DNA of 64,000 bases, taken from positions 298,338-362,337 of the forward strand of contig CAWHFJ010000009.1 of the NCBI GenBank assembly GCA_963828495.1. The letters run 5' to 3'. The stretch comes from Candidatus Omnitrophota bacterium. GTDB lineage: Bacteria; Omnitrophota; Gorgyraeia; Zapsychrales; Fredricksoniimonadaceae. Within the stretch, counting starts at the first letter, position 1. The number at the start of each line of letters is the position of its first letter. This document shows, one piece after another, positions 54,614 through 64,000 of this stretch. The notes beneath the pieces were generated by a model. The model did no database searches. It saw nothing but the letters and a program-made list of their open reading frames with translations, and was not told the DNA's origin. The translations under genes were made by a program, and so were the position numbers.

Positions 54614-54687
54614 GACCCCATCGTCTAGCCTGGTCAGGACACAAGCTTTTCAAGCTTGCAGCACGGGTTCAAATCCCGTTGGGGTCG
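54614..54687 (+). tRNA. tRNA-Glu (anticodon UUC)
   Basis: Acceptor GACCCCA/TGGGGTC, anticodon arm CAAGC-TTTTCAA-GCTTG, T arm ACGGG-TTCAAAT-CCCGT. No encoded CCA. Confidence 0.92.
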
Positions 54688-54709
54688 CTTTCAACTATCG
54701 AGGAGGACA

Positions 54710-55371
54710 ATGATGTTAACTATCTACGGTTCTGATTTATCCGCACCTGCCATCAAGGTCCGTTTGACCGCGAGCTTATTAGGCTTGCCTTACAAGTGGC
54801 AGATAGTCAACCTGCGCGAAGGCGAGCAAAAACAGGAATGGTTTTTGAAAATCAATCCGGTGGGCAAGGTGCCGGCCATGGACGATGACGGGTTTTATTT
54901 ATTTGAAAGCAACGCCATTTGTAAATACCTCTGTGACAAACAGGGCTCTTCTTTATACCCCAAGGACGCCAAAAAGCGTGCCACCGTTGATCAATGGATC
55001 GATTATGCTTCTTTTCATATGGGCGCTAATTTTATGCCGGTTGTGTATAATCGGGTTTTTGCCCCGCGCAGGGGGCAGGCCGGTCAATGAAAAAGCTATT
55101 GCCGACGCTCTTGAATTCCTCAAGCAGTACTTTCCTGTCATTGAAAACCAATTGACACAACACAAACACGTCGTGTCAGGCGGAGATATCATTAGCGGAC
55201 ATTATTTTATTGGCACTGCTCGAGCCGGCGGAAATGGCCCACATAGATTTAAGCGCGTATCCCCAATTAAACGCGTGGCGTACAGGGCTTAAAAAACAAA
55301 ATTTTTATACGAGTTGCTATAAAGAATATGGCGAAATGCTGAAAGCCCAGCCGCTGAAAGAAGACTATTAG
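54710..55371 (+). CDS. Glutathione S-transferase-family protein, two frame changes as assembled
   Basis: AGGAGG then ATG at 54710. The N-terminal thioredoxin-like domain has KINPVGKVPAMDDDGFYLFESNAICKYL. The frame changes near 55065 (G run) and 55190, and the C-terminus reads ..AYPQLNAWRTGLKKQ..KEDY. Confidence 0.75.
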
Positions 55372-56164
55372 ATGAAAGTCGCTCTTTTACAACTTTGTGC
55401 CGGGAAGATAAAAAGCCAATGTTCAACAGGCCGTCGCCATGTCCCAAGAGGCGCTATCGCAAGGGGCCGCATTTATGCTTTTGCCGGAAGTTTTTAATTT
55501 TCGTGGGACCGTAGGAATAAAAATTATTTGCAAAGGCGCGGAAAAAATACCGGGCCCATCAACACGACGCTTTTATTCCGCTGGCTAAAAAATACAAAGC
55601 CTCTTTCTTGTTGGGATCTATTTTAGAGAAAGCCACGTGCGATCACGCCTATAGCACCTCGGTGTTTATTGATCCTCAGGGGCAATCACCGCTCAATATC
55701 GTAAAATGCATTTATTTGATGCCCGTCTCGGGGAAGGATAGTCATTAAGGAAGCGGATCATTTGCTGGCTGGCCGCCGGCTCATGACGGCGAAGGCGGGA
55801 GAATTCAGGGTCGGGCTTTCTATTTGTTATGATTTGCGTTTTCCCGGCCTGTATCAAAATTATGGCCGCAGGGGGGTTGAAATTTTGACGGTACCGTCAT
55901 GTTTTACCAAGAAAGACCGGAGAGGCGCATTGGGAAGTCTTGCTGCGCGCCCGGGCTATTGAAAATTTGTGTTATGTTTTGGCCCCCAATCAGGTGGGCA
56001 GGACGGCCAGGGCATGCAAGCCTATGGGCACAGCATGATCATCTCCCCGTGGGGTGAGGTGATAGCGCAGGGCAGCGCCCAGGCCCAAGAAATTATTTTT
56101 GGCGAGATTGATCTTGAAGAAGTCAAGAAAGGCAAGGGCAATTTTACCGGGGATTGTGCCTTAA
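55372..56164 (+). pseudogene. Carbon-nitrogen hydrolase (nitrilase-superfamily) gene with about 7 frame changes
   Basis: Clean family-like segments sit in alternating frames: [122 protein letters not shown] and [14 protein letters not shown]. Breaks fall near 55412, 55565, 55685, 55738, 55915, 56000 and 56125. Confidence 0.7.
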
Positions 56165-56175
56165 GAGGAGAACAT

Positions 56176-57154
56176 ATGGCGAAACGGATAAAAGTGGCGG
56201 TGACCGGTGCGGCGGGCCAGATCGGATATGCGTTATTGTTTCGCATTGCCGCCGGGGAAATGTTCGGGAAAGACACGGAAATTGATTTAAGCCTATTGGA
56301 GCTGGAAAAAGCTTTGCCCGCCTTGCAAGGGGTGGTCATGGAGCTGGAGGATGGCGCCTTTCCTCTGTTGAGGGAGTTCGTGTCCATATCGGAGACCCGA
56401 ATCTTGCGTTTAAGGATATTGACTGGGCTTTATTGTTGGCAGCGTGCCGCGCCGTGAAGGCATGGAACGTGGCGACCTGCTTAAAGATCAACGGCGGGGT
56501 TTTTACTGTACAAGGCAGGGCCCTTTCAGAGCATGCCAAACCCGGCTGCAAAGTGCTCGTCGTCGGCAATCCCTGCAACACCAATGCGTTTATTGCCAAG
56601 AGTGTTTGTAAAAATATTCCCGCCAAGAATTTTTTTGCCATGACCATGCTTGATGAGAACCGCGCGCGGACTCAATTGGCGCAAAAAGCGCTGCGTAACG
56701 TGTCCCTGGTCAAAAATCTGGCCATTTGGGGAAACCATTCATCGACCCAATATCCGGATTTTTATCATGCGACTATCGACGGACATCCGGCCGTGGAAGT
56801 GATTAAAGACGAGGCATGGCTTAAGGGCCCATTTATTGAAACGGTGCAAAAAAGGGGAGCGCCATCATCAAGGCCCGCGGGCTTTCTTCCGCGGCCTCGG
56901 CGGCCAATGCGGTGATTCAGACGGTGCACAACATCACGACACCAACGCCTGCCGGTGAATTTTTTTCAGCCGCAGTTTCTTCAGATGGCAGTTATGGCGT
57001 TGAGCCGGGGATTATTTTTAGTTTTCCTTTACGTTCTAACGGCAAGGATTGTGAAATTGTACAAAATCTCAAGCATAATGAATTTGCCCAAAATAAAATT
57101 AAAGCCACCTTGGATGAGCTTTTAGCGGAAAAAGATGCGGTAAAGCATCTTTAA
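56176..57154 (+). CDS. mdh: Malate dehydrogenase (LDH-like MDH type 2), four frame changes as assembled
   Basis: GAGGAG then ATG at 56176. The sequence includes [44 protein letters not shown] and a C-terminus ending ..[10 protein letters not shown]. Breaks fall near 56383, 56428, 56482 and 56866. Confidence 0.85.
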
Positions 57155-58309: not shown

Positions 58310-59092
58310 ATGCCCTTAGAGAATAAAAAACAACTCTTGATTATTCTTGGAGCTGTGGCCGCCGGGATTTTTGCGGTTATTTTGACCAGCGGTTATGTCA
58401 AAAGCAGCATTGAAGGACAGACTGCGGCTTTGGCCGAACGCTACGAGGTCAAGCAAAAAGAGGCAGTGTCCCAAATCCAACAGAGAAGCGATCAGCAGAT
58501 GGCGGCCTTGGCTGGGGAGTTGCAACGTGTCAAAGCCGAGCAGGCGCAGGCCATACAAAAACAAATGGCCGCTTTGCAGTCAGAGATACAAAGCAGGCCC
58601 ATCCAGCAACAGGTCATTGCCCCAGTTAAAAGACCCAAGCCGTCGTTGGCTCTAAAAACACCGGCAGGCAAGCGTGCGGTGACGGTGATGATCGATTCCC
58701 TGGAAGCGGTGGGCGGACTGCTTAATGCCGGAGATTTTGTGGACGTGATAGCCGAATTGAATGTGCCCGCACAAACAGCGGAGAAAAAAACCGTGACCGC
58801 GATGATTTTTCAGGGCTTACAGGTCTTGGCCGTCAATACCAATCTGGATGAGCCGGGCCAGTACGATCAACAGCAGGCTCCGGCCTTAAAAATTACGTTT
58901 GCGGTTGACCCGCAAGAAGCAGGACTTTTAGCTTTTGCCAATAAAAATGGCAAACTGCAGTTAGCCTTGCGTTCTCCGGATGAAATCCAGACCCAAAAGG
59001 TGAAAGCCTCCACTTGGAAAACCCTGGCGGACTATGTGTTACAAAATGAGGGGTATAATATTCAAAATCCAGACGGGGAGACCGGGGAATAA
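58310..59092 (+). CDS. cpaB: Flp/Tad pilus assembly protein CpaB/RcpC-like
   Basis: N-terminal TM helix, a Gln-rich coiled coil, then PAGKRAVTVMIDSLEAVGGLLNAGDFVDVIA and a KLQLALRSP-type C-terminus typical of CpaB. Confidence 0.75.
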   Translation: MPLENKKQLLIILGAVAAGIFAVILTSGYVKSSIEGQTAALAERYEVKQKEAVSQIQQRSDQQMAALAGELQRVKAEQAQAIQKQMAALQSEIQSRPIQQQVIAPVKRPKPSLALKTPAGKRAVTVMIDSLEAVGGLLNAGDFVDVIAELNVPAQTAEKKTVTAMIFQGLQVLAVNTNLDEPGQYDQQQAPALKITFAVDPQEAGLLAFANKNGKLQLALRSPDEIQTQKVKASTWKTLADYVLQNEGYNIQNPDGETGE

Positions 59093-59152: not shown

Positions 59153-60881
59153 ATGAAACCCCATTTTCTAAAATATTTTTTTAGCATTGTCTTTATTTTT
59201 GTTTTTATGATGGCGCGAGGGGCATTTTTATCTGCGCAGGAGAATGCGACAGACACAGACGCTATTGATTTGGTTGTTGGGGATATTGAAAATGTAACGG
59301 CTAACGGTTTAATACGGGTGTCTATTACCAACCCGGAGATAGCAGATATTTCAGACGTCCAAAGCGGCAAAGTTTCGCTGTTGGCCAAAAGAGCCGGAGA
59401 GACAATTTTGTTTTTGTGGGACTCTTCGGGCAAGCGCAGCATGAAAGTGCGCGTGGTGAATGAAGATTTAAGCGTGGTCAAGGCCCGTGTGCAGAAGATA
59501 TTAGATGAAGCGAACATGTCAGGCATTTCTTTGCAAATCAACACGGATGAAGGCAAGGTCGTTGTGTCCGGGGCTGTTTCCAAGGACAATAAAGTCAGGT
59601 TGGATAAAATTTTGGGTGGCTATAAGGACAGCTTGTTGAATTTTGTTACAGAAGAAAAAGACGAGTCCTTGATCCAGGTGGATATGCAGATTGTGGAAAT
59701 CAGCACGTCTTTGGAGAAAGATTTGGGAATCCTTTGGGGGACGGGGAGTGGCGGGACAGGGACAGTCACTGTGGGTAGTGGGAGTACGAATTCCGGCGCT
59801 GTCAATCTTAATTATGGGGAAAATATGCCTTCGGGGCACAAATTTGCAGACCTTTTTAAGATAGGCAGTTTTCAGCGGACAACTCCGTTAGAGGCCACAG
59901 TTAATGCGTTGGTCCAAGAAGGCAAGGCACGGCTTATTTCCAAGCCCCGCCTGGTGGTAGTCAGCGGCAAACAAGCCAGTTTCTTGGTGGGCGGAGAAAT
60001 TCCCGTTGAAAACACGACCACTAATTCCATAGGGACTTCACAAACCACCAGCACGACCTATTCACAATATGGGGTTAATTTGATGGTCACGCCGACCCTC
60101 CGCGCAGGGAAAATCGATGTACAACTCAATGTGGATATTCGAGACATTGACTCCGCGCCGCCGGCTGGCTCGTCCAATAGTGGAAATGGCTTTTATTACG
60201 CGCTCGGCCCAGACCGACTTATTGATGGACAATAAGCAGACCATCGTACTGGCGGGGTTGATTAAATATTCCGACTCGGAACAAGTGACCTCGGTCCCGT
60301 TTCTTTCTAAAATTCCTATTGTGGGGGCCTTGTTTAGAAATCGTAACAACCCCGGGGATAGCAACACGGAAATGGTGATTATTGTGACACCGATGGTGCT
60401 TGCCGACAAGAAATTCGCGGACAAACAATTGGTGATGCCCACTCCGGCGGAGCGTCAGAGTTGGCAAGAAATAGATGCGAAGTATGAGCATGAACCTCTT
60501 GCCGGCAACAAGAGCACTGCCCCGGATAATAGCGCAACGCCGCTATCGGAAATGACGATCTACGCGCGCCTTATTCAAGAGAAAATTTCCAAGATGATTA
60601 CCTATCCACAGGAGGCCATGCAGAATTATTGGACAGGCACCGTGAAACTCAGGCTAAGGATTCTTAGAAACGGGACATTGGCTTCAGGTGAAGTTGTTCA
60701 ATCTTCAGGTCATGCGGTCTTTGATGAGGATGCGCTACGTGCCGCCCAAATGGGCGCTCCCTATGACGCATTTACGGCAGGGATGAATCAGGATGAGCTG
60801 GTTTTTATGGTCCCTATCGTTTATAATAAGGTGACTGAGGGGGGGCAATCGCTGCCGGAGAAAGTCATTGCCTCGTACTAG
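59153..60881 (+). CDS. cpaC: CpaC/RcpA-type secretin fused to a C-terminal TonB_C-like domain, one frame change
   Basis: Signal peptide, a pilus-formation N-terminal domain (IDLVVGDIENV..ITNPEIADI), a BON-like region and a secretin core (GKARLISKPRLVVVSGKQASFLVGGEIPV ... VPFLSKIPIVGALFRNR). The frame changes near 60175. The last ~95 aa (YPQEAMQNYWTGTVKLRLRILRNGTL..VVQSSGHAVFDEDALRAA) look like TonB_C. Confidence 0.8.
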
Positions 60882-60969: not shown

Positions 60970-63144
60970 ATGTCTTGTAAAATCATAACAGTGTTCAGTA
61001 ATAAGGGCGGGGTGGGCAAGACCTTTATTGCGGTCAATATCGCGTGTGCCTTAAGCCTGAAGGCTAAAAGGGTGTTGCTTGTTGATTTGAGTTTACAGGC
61101 CAGCCAGGACATGGCGCGCATGCTCAATTGTTCGGCGACGTATTGTTTGGTGGATATTCTCAACGCCATGGAAAGCCCCCTTGCCGACACGATCAAAAAA
61201 CATGTGGTGACGCATACCAGCGGGCTGCATTTTTTGCCGGGCATACGTTCCCCACGGCAAAGCGGACATATTACGCCGGATAATCTGCGCGTATTCTTCA
61301 AAAAAGCGGCTGGTCAGTATGATTATATTATCGTTGACAGCGGCAGCACGTTTAGCGAGACTTTTATCAGTATCCTGGATTCCTCCAATCTGATTCTACT
61401 GGTGGCCACGCCGGACATTCTGGCGGTGTATCAAGTCAAAACCAGTTTGAGTATTTTGCAGAGCCTGCATTTTCCGGTCAAGATGGTCCGCTTGATTTTA
61501 AACCGGGCGGAAAGCCGGGGGGGTGTCGCCTGGCAGGAAGTCAAAACCGCCTTGGCCTGCGACATTTTTGCGTTGATCCCCTCAGACGGTAAGACGGTAG
61601 GCATGTCTTTAAACCGCGGGATCCCCTGCGTCATGGACAACCCTGACGCCAAAGTTTCCGGGACTTTTTTTGAACTGGCGGAACAATTAGAAAACGAAAG
61701 CATTTATGTGCAGGCGTCCGACGTCATCAAGGTGCGCGTCACGGACGATGTTTTCAATAAAACGGATGCGTTTTGGGAAAAATTCGGCATTAGTTCCAAT
61801 CCGGCCGCAGAGCTAGATTTTAAAAAAGAAGAAGACGAGGTCATTAAATTAAAAAGGGCCATTCATCATCGTTTAGTGGAGCGCATGAATTTACAAAAAA
61901 TGTCCCCGGAGACCCTCAATGACCCCTCCCAGGCCGTTCATATGCGTAAAGCGGCGGAGAAGGTTGTTACGGAATTATTGACGGAGACCTCGGGCGGGTT
62001 TCTCTCCAGCCATGAGGAGCGTTCCAAATTAGTCGGGGAGATCGTCTCGGAAGCGTTAGGGTTGGGCCCTCTGGAAGATCTGCTGGCCGACGAGACTATT
62101 ACGGACATCCTGGTCAACAATAAAGATGAAATTTTCGTGGAGAAGAACGGGAAGATTGTGCTGACGAATAAAAGGTTTGTGACTAATGAACAGGTCCGCG
62201 CCACGATCGATCGCATCATCGCGCCGTTAGGCCGCCGTATCGATGAATCGACGCCCATGGTGGACGCACGCCTGCCCGACGGGTCCCGCATCAACGCGAT
62301 CATCCCGCCATTGTCGCTCAACGGCCCCATGATTACGGTCCGCAAGTTTGCCCAGACCCGTTATACGATGGAGGATATGCTGAATCGTTTTAAGAGTCTT
62401 TCCCAGCCGATGGCGGATTTTTTAGATGCCTGCGTCCTGGGGCGCAAGAACATCATCGTCTCCGGAGGCACCGGTGCCGGAAAAACCACCCTGCTTAATA
62501 TTATTTCACACTTTATTCCCGACAATGAGCGCATTATCACCATTGAAGACGCGGCAGAGCTGCGTCTGAGCAAAACACATTGGGCCAGATTAGAAAGCCG
62601 TTCGGCCAACATTGAAGGCCGGGGCCAGGTAACGATCAGAGACCTTTTTATCAATACCTTGCGCATGCGTCCTGACCGGATTATTATTGGGGAGTGCCGC
62701 GGCCCGGAAGTTTTGGACATGCTGCAGGCGATGAATACGGGGCATGACGGTTCTTTGACCACCCTGCATGCGAACACCCCCCGGGATGTGCTTTCGCGTC
62801 TGGCTTCGATGGTTTTGTTATCAGGGATTGAACTGCCCCTGCGTGCGATTTATGAAATGTCCGCTTCCGCGATCCATATTATTGTCCAAATCAATCGGTT
62901 TTCCGACGGGTCGCGTAAAATCACAGCGATTTCCGAGATGACCGGAAGGATGGTGGATAACCTTCCGGAAATCAAAGACGTGTTTGTGTTTTCGCATAAA
63001 GGGGTCAATGCCGAAGGTCAGGTTATTGGAGAATACGAAGCGACCGGCTATGTGCCTAAATGTTTTGAAGATCTGCTTTCCAGGGGTGTAACACTCAGCA
63101 AAACCATATTTAGTAATAACAGCATAAGCCAAAATCCGGCGTAG
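60970..63144 (+). CDS. Single-polypeptide fusion of a CpaE/TadZ-like ParA-type ATPase and a CpaF/TadA secretion ATPase
   Basis: The N-terminal ~245 aa carry a deviant Walker A (SNKGGVGKTFIAVNIA). The C-terminal ~430 aa form a CpaF core (ITDILVNN, GGTGAGKTTLLN, ERIITIEDAAEL, RPDRIIIGECRG, GHDGSLTTLHAN). One uninterrupted 724-codon ORF. Confidence 0.85.
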   Translation: MSCKIITVFSNKGGVGKTFIAVNIACALSLKAKRVLLVDLSLQASQDMARMLNCSATYCLVDILNAMESPLADTIKKHVVTHTSGLHFLPGIRSPRQSGHITPDNLRVFFKKAAGQYDYIIVDSGSTFSETFISILDSSNLILLVATPDILAVYQVKTSLSILQSLHFPVKMVRLILNRAESRGGVAWQEVKTALACDIFALIPSDGKTVGMSLNRGIPCVMDNPDAKVSGTFFELAEQLENESIYVQASDVIKVRVTDDVFNKTDAFWEKFGISSNPAAELDFKKEEDEVIKLKRAIHHRLVERMNLQKMSPETLNDPSQAVHMRKAAEKVVTELLTETSGGFLSSHEERSKLVGEIVSEALGLGPLEDLLADETITDILVNNKDEIFVEKNGKIVLTNKRFVTNEQVRATIDRIIAPLGRRIDESTPMVDARLPDGSRINAIIPPLSLNGPMITVRKFAQTRYTMEDMLNRFKSLSQPMADFLDACVLGRKNIIVSGGTGAGKTTLLNIISHFIPDNERIITIEDAAELRLSKTHWARLESRSANIEGRGQVTIRDLFINTLRMRPDRIIIGECRGPEVLDMLQAMNTGHDGSLTTLHANTPRDVLSRLASMVLLSGIELPLRAIYEMSASAIHIIVQINRFSDGSRKITAISEMTGRMVDNLPEIKDVFVFSHKGVNAEGQVIGEYEATGYVPKCFEDLLSRGVTLSKTIFSNNSISQNPA

Positions 63145-63154
63145 GACCCTCCCC

Positions 63155-63490
63155 ATGGTCGTTAACCTGACCCGTCAGTGTACGATAGCGTCGAGTGTTA
63201 AAGTGGCCAGTAATCCCTGGCAACGTGTTAAAGGGCTGCTGGGGGCGCGCCATCTGCCTCAAAAAGAGGCGCTGGTCATAACCCGCTGTCAGTCCATTCA
63301 CATGGTTTTTATGAAATTCCCTATTGATGTGATTTTTTGTGATGCCCAAAATACAGTGGTGGGCTTGTGTGAAAACATCCAACCTTTTTGTTTTTCCCCG
63401 ATTTTTTGGAAAGCGTCATATGCCATTGAATTGCCTGCAGGCAGTATAAATGCTTCCAATACCCAAATAGGGGACCAAATGCAGATGTAA
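63155..63490 (+). CDS. DUF192 (COG1430)-like small protein
   Basis: 111 aa. RVKGLLG....AL.I..C.SIHMVFMKFPIDVIF and AIELPAG resemble DUF192, by my recognition only. Confidence 0.65.
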   Translation: MVVNLTRQCTIASSVKVASNPWQRVKGLLGARHLPQKEALVITRCQSIHMVFMKFPIDVIFCDAQNTVVGLCENIQPFCFSPIFWKASYAIELPAGSINASNTQIGDQMQM

Positions 63491-63546: not shown

Positions 63547-63598
63547 TTGACGCAATATAGACTTGTGTTATAATAATGTCCAGTCTGGACATTATTAT
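63547..63598 (+). promoter_or_regulatory. Promoter plus a 29-bp perfect palindrome (candidate operator) upstream of the HTH gene
   Basis: TTGACG (63547..63552), a 16-nt spacer, then TATAAT (63569..63574). The palindrome ATAATAATGTCCAG-T-CTGGACATTATTAT (63570..63598) runs from the -10 box into the ATG. Confidence 0.45.
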
Positions 63599-64000
63599 GG
63601 GTGTTACCTATAAATTAAGAGAAGATGTTGTCCGTTTTATTATCAGCCAAAGGCAAAATAATCCTCTTTTTTCCTGCCGCCAACTGGCTGAATCCGTATC
63701 TCAACAATTTGGCATACGCCTTTCTAAGTCATCAGTTCATGATGTCCTTAAGGAATCCGGTGCAGTGACCCCCCGCGGGCGTAAACCCAAAGATAAATTT
63801 CAAATTCCTATAGAAAAAAAGAAACAGATTCAGGTTAGTTTATCCCAAGCAAGTACTGGCAAATCCCCCCGCAACAAAAGATCCTACGAGTGTCATTGCG
63901 AGCCCGCAGGTCGAAATTGCTTCGCCGTTAAAAACACTCCTCGCCATGACACGCAGAAGGGATCGCCCCCTCTTCAGAAGGAAGACATTAAGGAAGCTGA
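63597..64000 (+). CDS. HTH-domain protein, 3' end outside the window (regulator or transposase-like N-terminus)
   Basis: An open frame runs from the ATG at 63597 to the window end. It begins MGVTYKLREDVVRFIISQRQNNPLFSCRQLAESVSQQFGIRLSKSSVHDVLKESG, an HTH-like region. The distal part runs through a REP-like element, so the true length is uncertain. Confidence 0.45.
   Translation, partial: MGVTYKLREDVVRFIISQRQNNPLFSCRQLAESVSQQFGIRLSKSSVHDVLKESGAVTPRGRKPKDKFQIPIEKKKQIQVSLSQASTGKSPRNKRSYECHCEPAGRNCFAVKNTPRHDTQKGSPPLQKEDIKEA
63890..63952. repeat. REP/MITE-like imperfect inverted repeat carrying the GTGTCATTGCGAG core
   Basis: GTGTCATTGCGAG (63890..63902) pairs with CTCGCCATGACAC (63940..63952) at 12 of 13 positions, with a 37-nt spacer. 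The core is the same as in the 3099..3170 tandem repeat. Confidence 0.5.

Follow-up and report, generated by a model that had tools for sequence, protein, structure and literature searches.

Does the 724-residue open reading frame (ORF) found in a 64,000-nucleotide stretch of Candidatus Omnitrophota DNA (contig CAWHFJ010000009.1; the whole stretch is termed the window hereafter) encode a genuine fusion of two ATPases of the Tad pilus, TadZ/CpaE and TadA/CpaF, and what would such a protein do in the cell? We regard the ORF as encoding a receiver-less TadZ/CpaE in fusion with TadA/CpaF, the motor of a Tad (Flp, type IVc) pilus, i.e., the architecture termed TadZA, in a member of Candidatus Omnitrophota, and place the probability of this reading at roughly 80%. 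Judging from the sequence comparisons described below, the fusion is genuine and selectively maintained, with both domains intact, conserved and subject to purifying selection.

Architecture of the fusion and its conservation in close relatives

The original prediction on this DNA held that one uninterrupted ORF carries both ATPases: a ParA-type CpaE/TadZ domain that has a deviant Walker A motif and no receiver-like N-terminal domain in the first part, and a complete CpaF core in the second. Our analysis agrees on each of these points. The frame runs through 724 codons with no internal stop (Table 1), and its architecture is conserved in relatives. Annotation with hidden Markov models (HMMs), which had been proposed as a check, assigned the Pfam families AAA_31, CbiA and ParA to residues 3–186 (E-values of 4e-16 to 8e-14) and T2SSE to residues 363–638 (E-value of 2e-58), and SNKGGVGKT as well as all four CpaF boxes were found at the predicted positions. 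In both the Pfam annotation and the AlphaFold2 (AF2) model, the ATPase fold already starts at residue 3, and the receiver-like domain is thus absent from the N terminus of the fusion.

A protein search covering 5.8 billion proteins recovered the identical 724-residue protein (P0001). Among the 120 best clusters at 90% identity, 116 possess both domains in one chain and no receiver domain; most of them are full-length and 64–100% identical to the window protein, and the majority of the single-chain close relatives comprise ~715–727 residues. These 116 fused clusters derive from the NCBI, JGI, ENA and Logan data, and several of them are named Candidatus Omnitrophica/Omnitrophota TadA. The search for homologs of the same architecture, likewise suggested with the prediction, was therefore positive.

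We then consider the alignment of 63 close relatives from the top clusters (alignment A1). The columns of the junction between the two domains (residues 241–300) are 97–100% gap-free. Variability within the protein is highest at this junction; R256, W269, K271, G273, K295 and H299 in it are invariant in the 63 sequences. The ratio of nonsynonymous to synonymous substitution rates (dN/dS) against the relative L001 was 0.045 for the N-terminal domain, 0.046 for the CpaF part and 0.19 for the linker (calculated over residues 241–300). Judged by this ratio, the linker evolves under purifying selection in the frame of the fusion. No variation was found at N11, K12, G13, G14, V15, G16 and K17 of the deviant Walker A motif, all residues of GGTGAGKTT in the CpaF part except G500 and A503 are invariant, and so are most residues of the four CpaF boxes.

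Identity of the two ATPase domains

The N-terminal domain was modeled by AF2 with predicted local distance difference test (pLDDT) values of 70–95, save for a short dip at residues 181–190. Its top Foldseek match was 3ea0, a structure discussed as a TadZ-type ATPase domain, with template modeling (TM) scores of 0.87–0.89 and a root mean square deviation of 2.1 Å, followed by FlhG, FleN and MinD. In phmmer comparisons, the domain scored 162, 151, 140 and 135 bits against the best Firmicute CpaE proteins encoded next to cpaF, and at most 73 bits against the solved MinD, FlhG and Soj proteins in PDB. In a survey of tad loci, in which one genome per GTDB species was searched, the best 80 loci were kept and their reading frames were checked, the CpaE ATPase domains of 53 of the 80 species genomes matched the N-terminal domain of the window protein at 23–38% identity. 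The closest unfused relatives of the domain are CpaE genes lying directly upstream of cpaF. As the CpaE proteins encoded next to cpaF outscore any solved MinD approximately twofold, we regard the N-terminal domain, on these scores, as derived from TadZ/CpaE. The lysine of the P-loop has been lost in many proteobacterial and acidobacterial TadZ proteins (KGGxG[TA]T) but is kept in the lineage of the window protein (NKGGVGKT); GK[ST] is also retained in CpaE of Firmicutes and actinobacteria.

The C-terminal part matched the cryo-electron microscopy chains of Caulobacter CpaF (8rkd and 9e24) with 369 bits. Compared with CpaF by Foldseek, the AF2 model of this part yielded TM scores of 0.68–0.78 at 42–43% identity, the three-helix bundle at residues 290–363 included. 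The bundle, bearing the pattern LK.R[IV]H..L, is conserved in all of the fused proteins and aligns to CpaF in 9e24. Together with the presence of all four boxes, these scores and identities indicate that the C-terminal part is a complete CpaF.

The linker and the FWEKFG motif

The two domains are joined by a tether of ~40 residues. The AF2 pLDDT values are below 50 at residues 251–289 and the predicted TM score (pTM) of the whole model is 0.45; on the ground of this disorder and the low pTM, the model predicts no fixed packing between the domains. Within the linker, W269, K271 and G273 of the motif FWEKFG are invariant in alignment A1, and the motif or a variant with one residue changed was found in 97 of the 114 close Omnitrophota relatives. 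It was found neither in the linkers of Bdellovibrionota nor in the representatives of clusters at 50% identity, and is thus clade-specific.

Unfused CpaE proteins often end 15–30 residues past the ATPase domain in a tail that is basic and hydrophobic, such as KKKRFSLFG, KKGFSLWK and KGWLDRLWKRG. FWEKFG sits at a distance after the ATPase domain that matches these tails, albeit internally in the fusion. In Caulobacter, a C-terminal amphipathic helix of CpaE has been reported (PMC13170226). FWEKFG is possibly a relic of the amphipathic membrane tail at the C terminus of TadZ that has become internal. The motif in the linker is a small new detail of this architecture.

Comparison with known Tad and Tad-like systems

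The architecture itself has been described. In Bdellovibrio bacteriovorus HD100, according to a preprint of July 2026, a ParA/MinD-like TadZ without ARD, a flexible linker and TadA form one protein, termed an "atypical TadZA fusion ATPase"; TadZ plus linker are necessary and sufficient for binding the polar hub RomR, and TadZA shuttles rapidly between the poles (bioRxiv 10.64898/2026.07.08.737194). That preprint presents the fusion as an atypical feature of a predator, with no discussion of its distribution. The statement of the original prediction that described Tad loci keep the two genes separate is thus outdated, as TadZA has been described in Bdellovibrio and public databases hold many proteins built in this way. 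Accordingly, the window provides a new Omnitrophota example of an already described architecture and not a new kind. A literature search for a CpaE–CpaF fusion under other wording found nothing. Seymour et al. (2023) reported Tad complexes in Omnitrophota, with TadB/TadC grouping with those of Bdellovibrionales, and do not mention the fusion (PMC10066038).

Like the window protein, Bdellovibrio TadZA unites a receiver-less TadZ, a flexible linker and a canonical TadA in a single polypeptide, and is encoded in the main tad locus. The fusions of the six Bdellovibrionota loci are all single ORFs in which the Walker A lysines are retained (GKGGVGKS). Their homology to the window protein extends over approximately residues 2–724, with 39–42% identity in the best segment; five of the six (L006, L007, L013, L014 and L018) match from residue ~2–21 to 715–724 of the query, and L017 from 104 to 715. 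In contrast, the linkers are unrelated, being IYVQxSDVxKVR...FWEKFG in Omnitrophota and LLQRLKxLKKP followed by an Ala/Ser/Gly-rich stretch in Bdellovibrionota. The two systems also differ in phylum and in the gene downstream of the fusion, which encodes DUF192 in the window but is tadB in Bdellovibrio.

The canonical Tad systems of Caulobacter crescentus and Aggregatibacter actinomycetemcomitans share with the window the same two ATPase folds, the order rcpC, secretin, tadZ and tadA, and possibly a tail motif behind the TadZ ATPase, whereas their TadZ and TadA are separate proteins and the receiver domain/ARD is present. The in-situ model of Caulobacter has six CpaE dimers ringing the CpaF hexamer at a ratio of 2:1, with receiver domains bridging the dimers (PMC13170226), whereas the fusion is forced into 1:1. 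The motor KilF of the Tad-like Kil apparatus of Myxococcus xanthus resembles the window protein in that a regulatory domain is fused to the N terminus of a CpaF-type motor, but that domain is FHA, which binds phosphopeptides, instead of a ParA/MinD ATPase (eLife 2021, PMC8460266).

Distribution and origin of the fusion

The canonical arrangement was found in 53 of the 80 surveyed loci, in which a CpaE ORF of ~400 residues lies just before a separate CpaF ORF of ~450 residues, with a gap of mostly ≤30 nt and ~130 nt at most. Both of the CpaE ORFs scanned with Pfam (L008 and L050) comprise Response_reg (receiver) and a ParA-type ATPase. Single-ORF fusions were detected in 13 loci, namely three of Omnitrophota (one labeled Planctomycetales), six of Bdellovibrionota, two unclassified, and one each of Elusimicrobiales and WOR-3. 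The complete chromosome of Bdellovibrio sp. HCB288 encodes a fusion of 746 residues with CbiA and T2SSE. In the remaining 14 loci, CpaF bears another N-terminal extension, which was FHA in three of the four scanned with Pfam, and no cpaE is adjacent. As the canonical cpaE ends close to the cpaF ORF, the loss of a stop codon could create a fusion.

One Sphaerochaetaceae locus (L061, 4376..5122) has a stand-alone TadZ of 249 residues without a receiver domain, directly upstream of a separate cpaF. This TadZ could be an unfused counterpart of the ARD-less TadZ in the fusions.

An exhaustive HMMER search of 1.84 billion representatives at 50% identity pointed to the same architecture: receiver-less ParA::CpaF fusions account for 63 of the best 149 representatives, and none of the 63 possesses a receiver domain. 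Three metagenomic polypeptides, P0082 (1156 residues), P0121 (1605 residues) and P0124 (1356 residues), carry two to four consecutive CpaF-like stretches and may represent secretion-ATPase cores covalently linked in tandem or chimeras of the assembly.

In the neighbor-joining (NJ) trees of both domains (100 bootstraps), the Omnitrophota fusions formed a clade with bootstrap values of 99–100% and those of Bdellovibrionota with values of 98–100%, while the monophyly of all the fused proteins received at most 5%. The FHA::CpaF proteins of Myxococcota and Lentisphaeria, whose loci have no adjacent cpaE, share a broad CpaF clade with ParA::CpaF (31% bootstrap). At this depth, the NJ trees are uninformative on whether the fusion arose by one event or several.

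Proposed function of the fused protein

We propose that the C-terminal part assembles into a hexamer of the usual kind, which would power extension and retraction of the pilus on the inner-membrane platform, and that every subunit would bear a TadZ domain on the flexible tether. The TadZ domain probably binds ATP and dimerizes with a neighboring TadZ domain, as both Walker A lysines are kept; nucleotide-dependent dimerization is plausible in the lineage of the window protein. With the ratio reduced from 12:6 in the Caulobacter model to 6:6, there can be at most three TadZ dimers per motor, and the fused form must be arranged differently from the 2:1 complex. Three TadZ dimers per hexamer would replace the separate ring of six CpaE dimers, the covalent link substituting for the contacts of the receiver domain by which canonical CpaE is kept around CpaF. 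The tether, and possibly FWEKFG as well, would touch the membrane or a landmark protein, such that recruitment and activity of the motor may be coupled within one chain. The original prediction had anticipated a fixed 1:1 stoichiometry and a simplified way of positioning the motor; the former follows from the fusion itself, while the latter is something that we infer.

Several observations weigh against the reading of the ORF as a TadZA motor positioned in this way. The C-terminal part scored 323 bits against the NCBIfam TadA model TIGR03819, below its cut-off of 373; this model, "TadA family conjugal transfer-associated ATPase" of the type hypoth_equivalog, covers a narrower named subgroup, and we thus do not count the miss against membership in CpaF. 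The motif KGGxG is not recognizable in 28 of the 63 fused representatives at 50% identity, implying that ATP-dependent dimerization is not a general requirement of the architecture. The sister relationship of the Omnitrophota and Bdellovibrionota fusions received 52% bootstrap on the N-terminal domain and 0% on CpaF. The pattern of the CpaE tails, present in 15 of 42 unfused tails against 1.5 expected from shuffles, was defined post hoc. FWEKFG has a weak hydrophobic moment of 0.34, compared with 0.48 for the nine-residue MinD segment GFLKRLFGG, and when CpaE and the linker were tested for an amphipathic tail by hydrophobic moment, the outcome was not significant (mean z ~0). A gene for the TadB/TadC platform was not found in the window or in the 22-kb locus of L001 with 142 phmmer probes; TadB/TadC of Omnitrophota have been reported (PMC10066038). 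Lastly, dimerization, membrane binding and positioning of the Omnitrophota protein are all properties that we infer.

Alternative explanations

The TadZ domain may instead be a regulatory clamp in cis, whose nucleotide-dependent pairing biases the CpaF hexamer toward extension or retraction or keeps it inactive until a signal. CpaF is bifunctional and drives assembly of the pilus as well as its disassembly (PMC13170226), the intact Walker A motif and the strong purifying selection on the N-terminal domain suggest that catalysis matters, and related CpaF clades bear a signaling domain (FHA) at the same N-terminal position. However, AF2 does not dock the N-terminal domain confidently on CpaF, given the low pTM and the disordered linker noted above. 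The binding of Bdellovibrio TadZ plus linker to a polar landmark points to positioning instead. We consider the clamp improbable as the principal role of the domain, though the two roles are not mutually exclusive.

It is considerably less probable that the N-terminal domain is a recruited MinD/FlhG-type ATPase of cell division or flagella, by which the fusion would tie the motor of the pilus to an oscillator resembling Min. MinD (TIGR01968) is the best NCBIfam match of the N-terminal part with 92–94 bits, some of the relatives bear the JGI name "septum site-determining protein MinD", the two lysines of Walker A are present just as they are in MinD, and Bdellovibrio TadZA moves from pole to pole according to the preprint. 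MinD, FlhG and FleN, which bear a short amphipathic membrane-targeting helix following the ATPase domain, share with the window protein the deviant Walker A fold (KGGxGK[ST]) and probably the chemistry of ATP-dependent dimerization. Nevertheless, the score falls far below the cut-off of the MinD model (212.9 bits), genuine CpaE proteins encoded beside cpaF score about twice as high in phmmer as any solved MinD, and the top structural match is 3ea0 and not MinD. Moreover, lysine retention is not specific to MinD, being shared with the Firmicute and actinobacterial CpaE proteins, and neither minC, minE nor a flagellar context was found at the locus. We reject MinD as the identity of the N-terminal domain on the basis of the score comparison and the gene context, and retain the origin from TadZ/CpaE.

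Equally slight is the chance that one chain is translated but works as two proteins, separated by proteolysis of the linker or produced by internal initiation, e.g., near Met306. In favor of this, disorder is predicted for the linker, conservation of the protein is lowest there, and Met306 is nearly invariant. On the other hand, the length of the linker is conserved and some of its residues are invariant, and a start at Met306, a residue within helix 1 of the three-helix bundle, would truncate CpaF. In B. bacteriovorus, full-length TadZA-msfGFP was detected by western blot (Figure S6C of the preprint) and the fusion was functional (bioRxiv 10.64898/2026.07.08.737194).

Finally, an artefact, in which an indel in an error-prone assembly merged separate cpaE and cpaF genes into one frame, can be dismissed with near certainty: neighboring genes in this indel-rich assembly are indeed broken as the original prediction warned (the adjacent secretin gene into two pieces and mdh into three) and one indel could fuse a canonical cpaE to the cpaF ORF lying so close to it, but the fusion ORF is intact, the single chain with a gap-free junction recurs in the closest clusters from different samples and assemblers and in the representative genomes of 13 species, one of which is a complete Bdellovibrio chromosome, the linker retains a low dN/dS in the fusion frame, and the full-length protein has been observed experimentally in B. 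bacteriovorus.

The tad locus and neighboring genes

The gene order in the window, extended by synteny with L001, is GST, CN_hydrolase, Mdh, PpiC, RcpC, secretin::TonB_C, the fusion, DUF192, a helix-turn-helix (HTH) protein and Flp-like pilins. The fusion thus occupies the slot behind rcpC and secretin in which cpaE and cpaF normally stand, and pilins with Flp/Class-III signals as well as a TadE-like gene lie downstream in L001. A frameshift near 60117–60235 breaks the secretin gene into two pieces (59153..60235 and 60117..60881), while its orthologue in L001 (8213..9931) is a single ORF of 572 residues. The C-terminal TonB_C domain is also present in L001, L003, L004 and L005, and in a tblastn search of the 80 tad loci TonB_C was found beside secretin only in those of Omnitrophota. 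Upstream, at 54656..57154 (+), frameshifts have divided the GST gene in two, fragmented CN_hydrolase and cut the gene for malate/lactate dehydrogenase into three, whereas the orthologues are intact in L001. The split genes at 54656..57154 and 59153..60881 fit an indel-prone (long-read) assembly and not real pseudogenes.

The DUF192 gene takes the same position in L001 and L003. Of the 80 scanned loci (L003–L082), 32 have a DUF192 homolog downstream of cpaF at a distance of a few kb, including those of Firmicutes, Acidobacteriota, Chloroflexota, Actinomycetota and others; this recurrence suggests that DUF192 is an unrecognized accessory component of the Tad machinery. The gene that follows DUF192 and precedes the Flp-like pilins encodes an HTH protein (63567..64000, +) and runs off the end of the window. 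The protein has weak matches to HTH_32 and the HTH of Tc3 transposase; its syntenic homolog in L001 (12553..13590) comprises 345 residues, and the window copy is 79% identical to it. It may be a regulator of the locus instead of a transposase.

Further downstream in L001 (13968..20540, +), there are at least three short pilin genes with Flp/Class-III signals in repeated modules of a pilin and a partner, cysteine-rich proteins of 367 and 324 residues that no Pfam family matches, and the beginning of a protein of >1398 residues, which recalls the reported association of giant proteins with pilus loci in Omnitrophota. In a distant Omnitrophota locus (L005, 4545..10172, +), the fusion gene is followed by genes for an 800-residue membrane protein with no Pfam match and a 1050-residue fusion of PIG-L deacetylase and GH3 glycosidase, which may represent cell-wall-targeting enzymes tied to the pilus locus. 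The 367- and 324-residue proteins of L001 and the 800-residue protein of L005 were rejected as candidates for platform proteins, as they have one, zero and three transmembrane-like segments, respectively, and no Pfam T2SSF match.

Table 1. Coordinates of the fusion ORF, its domains and motifs, and the adjacent genes in the 64,000-nucleotide window.
Feature	Position	Strand	Residues and basis
TadZ::TadA (CpaE::CpaF) fusion ORF, whole	60970..63144	+	724 aa; ATG start; no internal stop
TadZ/CpaE-type ParA/MinD ATPase domain	60970..61704	+	aa 1–245; Pfam AAA_31/CbiA/ParA, Foldseek, phmmer
Deviant Walker A SNKGGVGKT	60997..61023	+	aa 10–18; signature Lys12 and P-loop Lys17 both present
Switch I / Walker A' LLVDLSLQ	61075..61098	+	Asp39 invariant; aligned with VDISLPFG of 3ea0
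Walker B-like strand YIIVDSGS	61324..61347	+	Asp123 invariant
Interdomain linker, predicted disordered	61705..61836	+	aa 246–289; AF2 pLDDT, alignment
Linker motif FWEKFG	61771..61788	+	aa 268–273; conservation among relatives
CpaF N-terminal three-helix bundle	61837..62058	+	aa 290–363; AF2 helices 290–306, 319–340, 348–363
CpaF/TadA N- and C-terminal domains, hexameric secretion ATPase core	62059..63114	+	aa 364–715; Pfam T2SSE
CpaF Walker A GGTGAGKTT	62464..62490	+	aa 499–507; located in translation
CpaF Asp box ERIITIEDAAEL	62527..62562	+	aa 520–531; located in translation
CpaF Walker B RPDRIIIGECRG	62668..62703	+	aa 567–578; located in translation
CpaF His box TGHDGSLTTLHAN	62737..62775	+	aa 590–602; located in translation
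RcpC/CpaB gene	58310..59092	+	Pfam RcpC, E-value 2.8e-24; syntenic in L001, L003, L004, L005
Secretin (CpaC/RcpA) gene with C-terminal TonB_C	59153..60881	+	Pfam T2SS-T3SS_pil_N, Secretin, TonB_C over two pieces
DUF192 (COG1430) gene, 10 nt downstream of the fusion	63155..63490	+	Pfam DUF192, E-value 3.6e-20

Implications for the Tad motor and for Omnitrophota

Within a large clade of Omnitrophota, the fusion without a receiver domain is the standard form. It is present as well in Elusimicrobiales and WOR-3 and in dozens of other lineages from metagenomes, and thus represents a recurrent alternative design of the Tad motor beyond Bdellovibrio. As a natural covalent complex of TadZ and CpaF at 1:1, it is also a handy structural object for the contacts between ParA-like partners and their motors. 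Omnitrophota belong to the nanobacteria, and a predatory or parasitic way of life is suspected for them. The architecture common to Omnitrophota and Bdellovibrio, together with the grouping of TadB/TadC with those of Bdellovibrionales, is a further argument for an attack apparatus that both have in common.

As a tentative idea, to which we give only a modest chance, Omnitrophota TadZ may still act as a MinD-like ATP switch, whose pairing would clamp the motor to the membrane via the internal FWEKFG with neither a receiver domain nor a separate landmark ring, making a self-positioning, three-dimer motor. If this is true, ParA::CpaF would represent an alternative layout of the Tad system, widespread and of ancient derivation, in small or predatory bacteria and not a peculiarity of Bdellovibrio.

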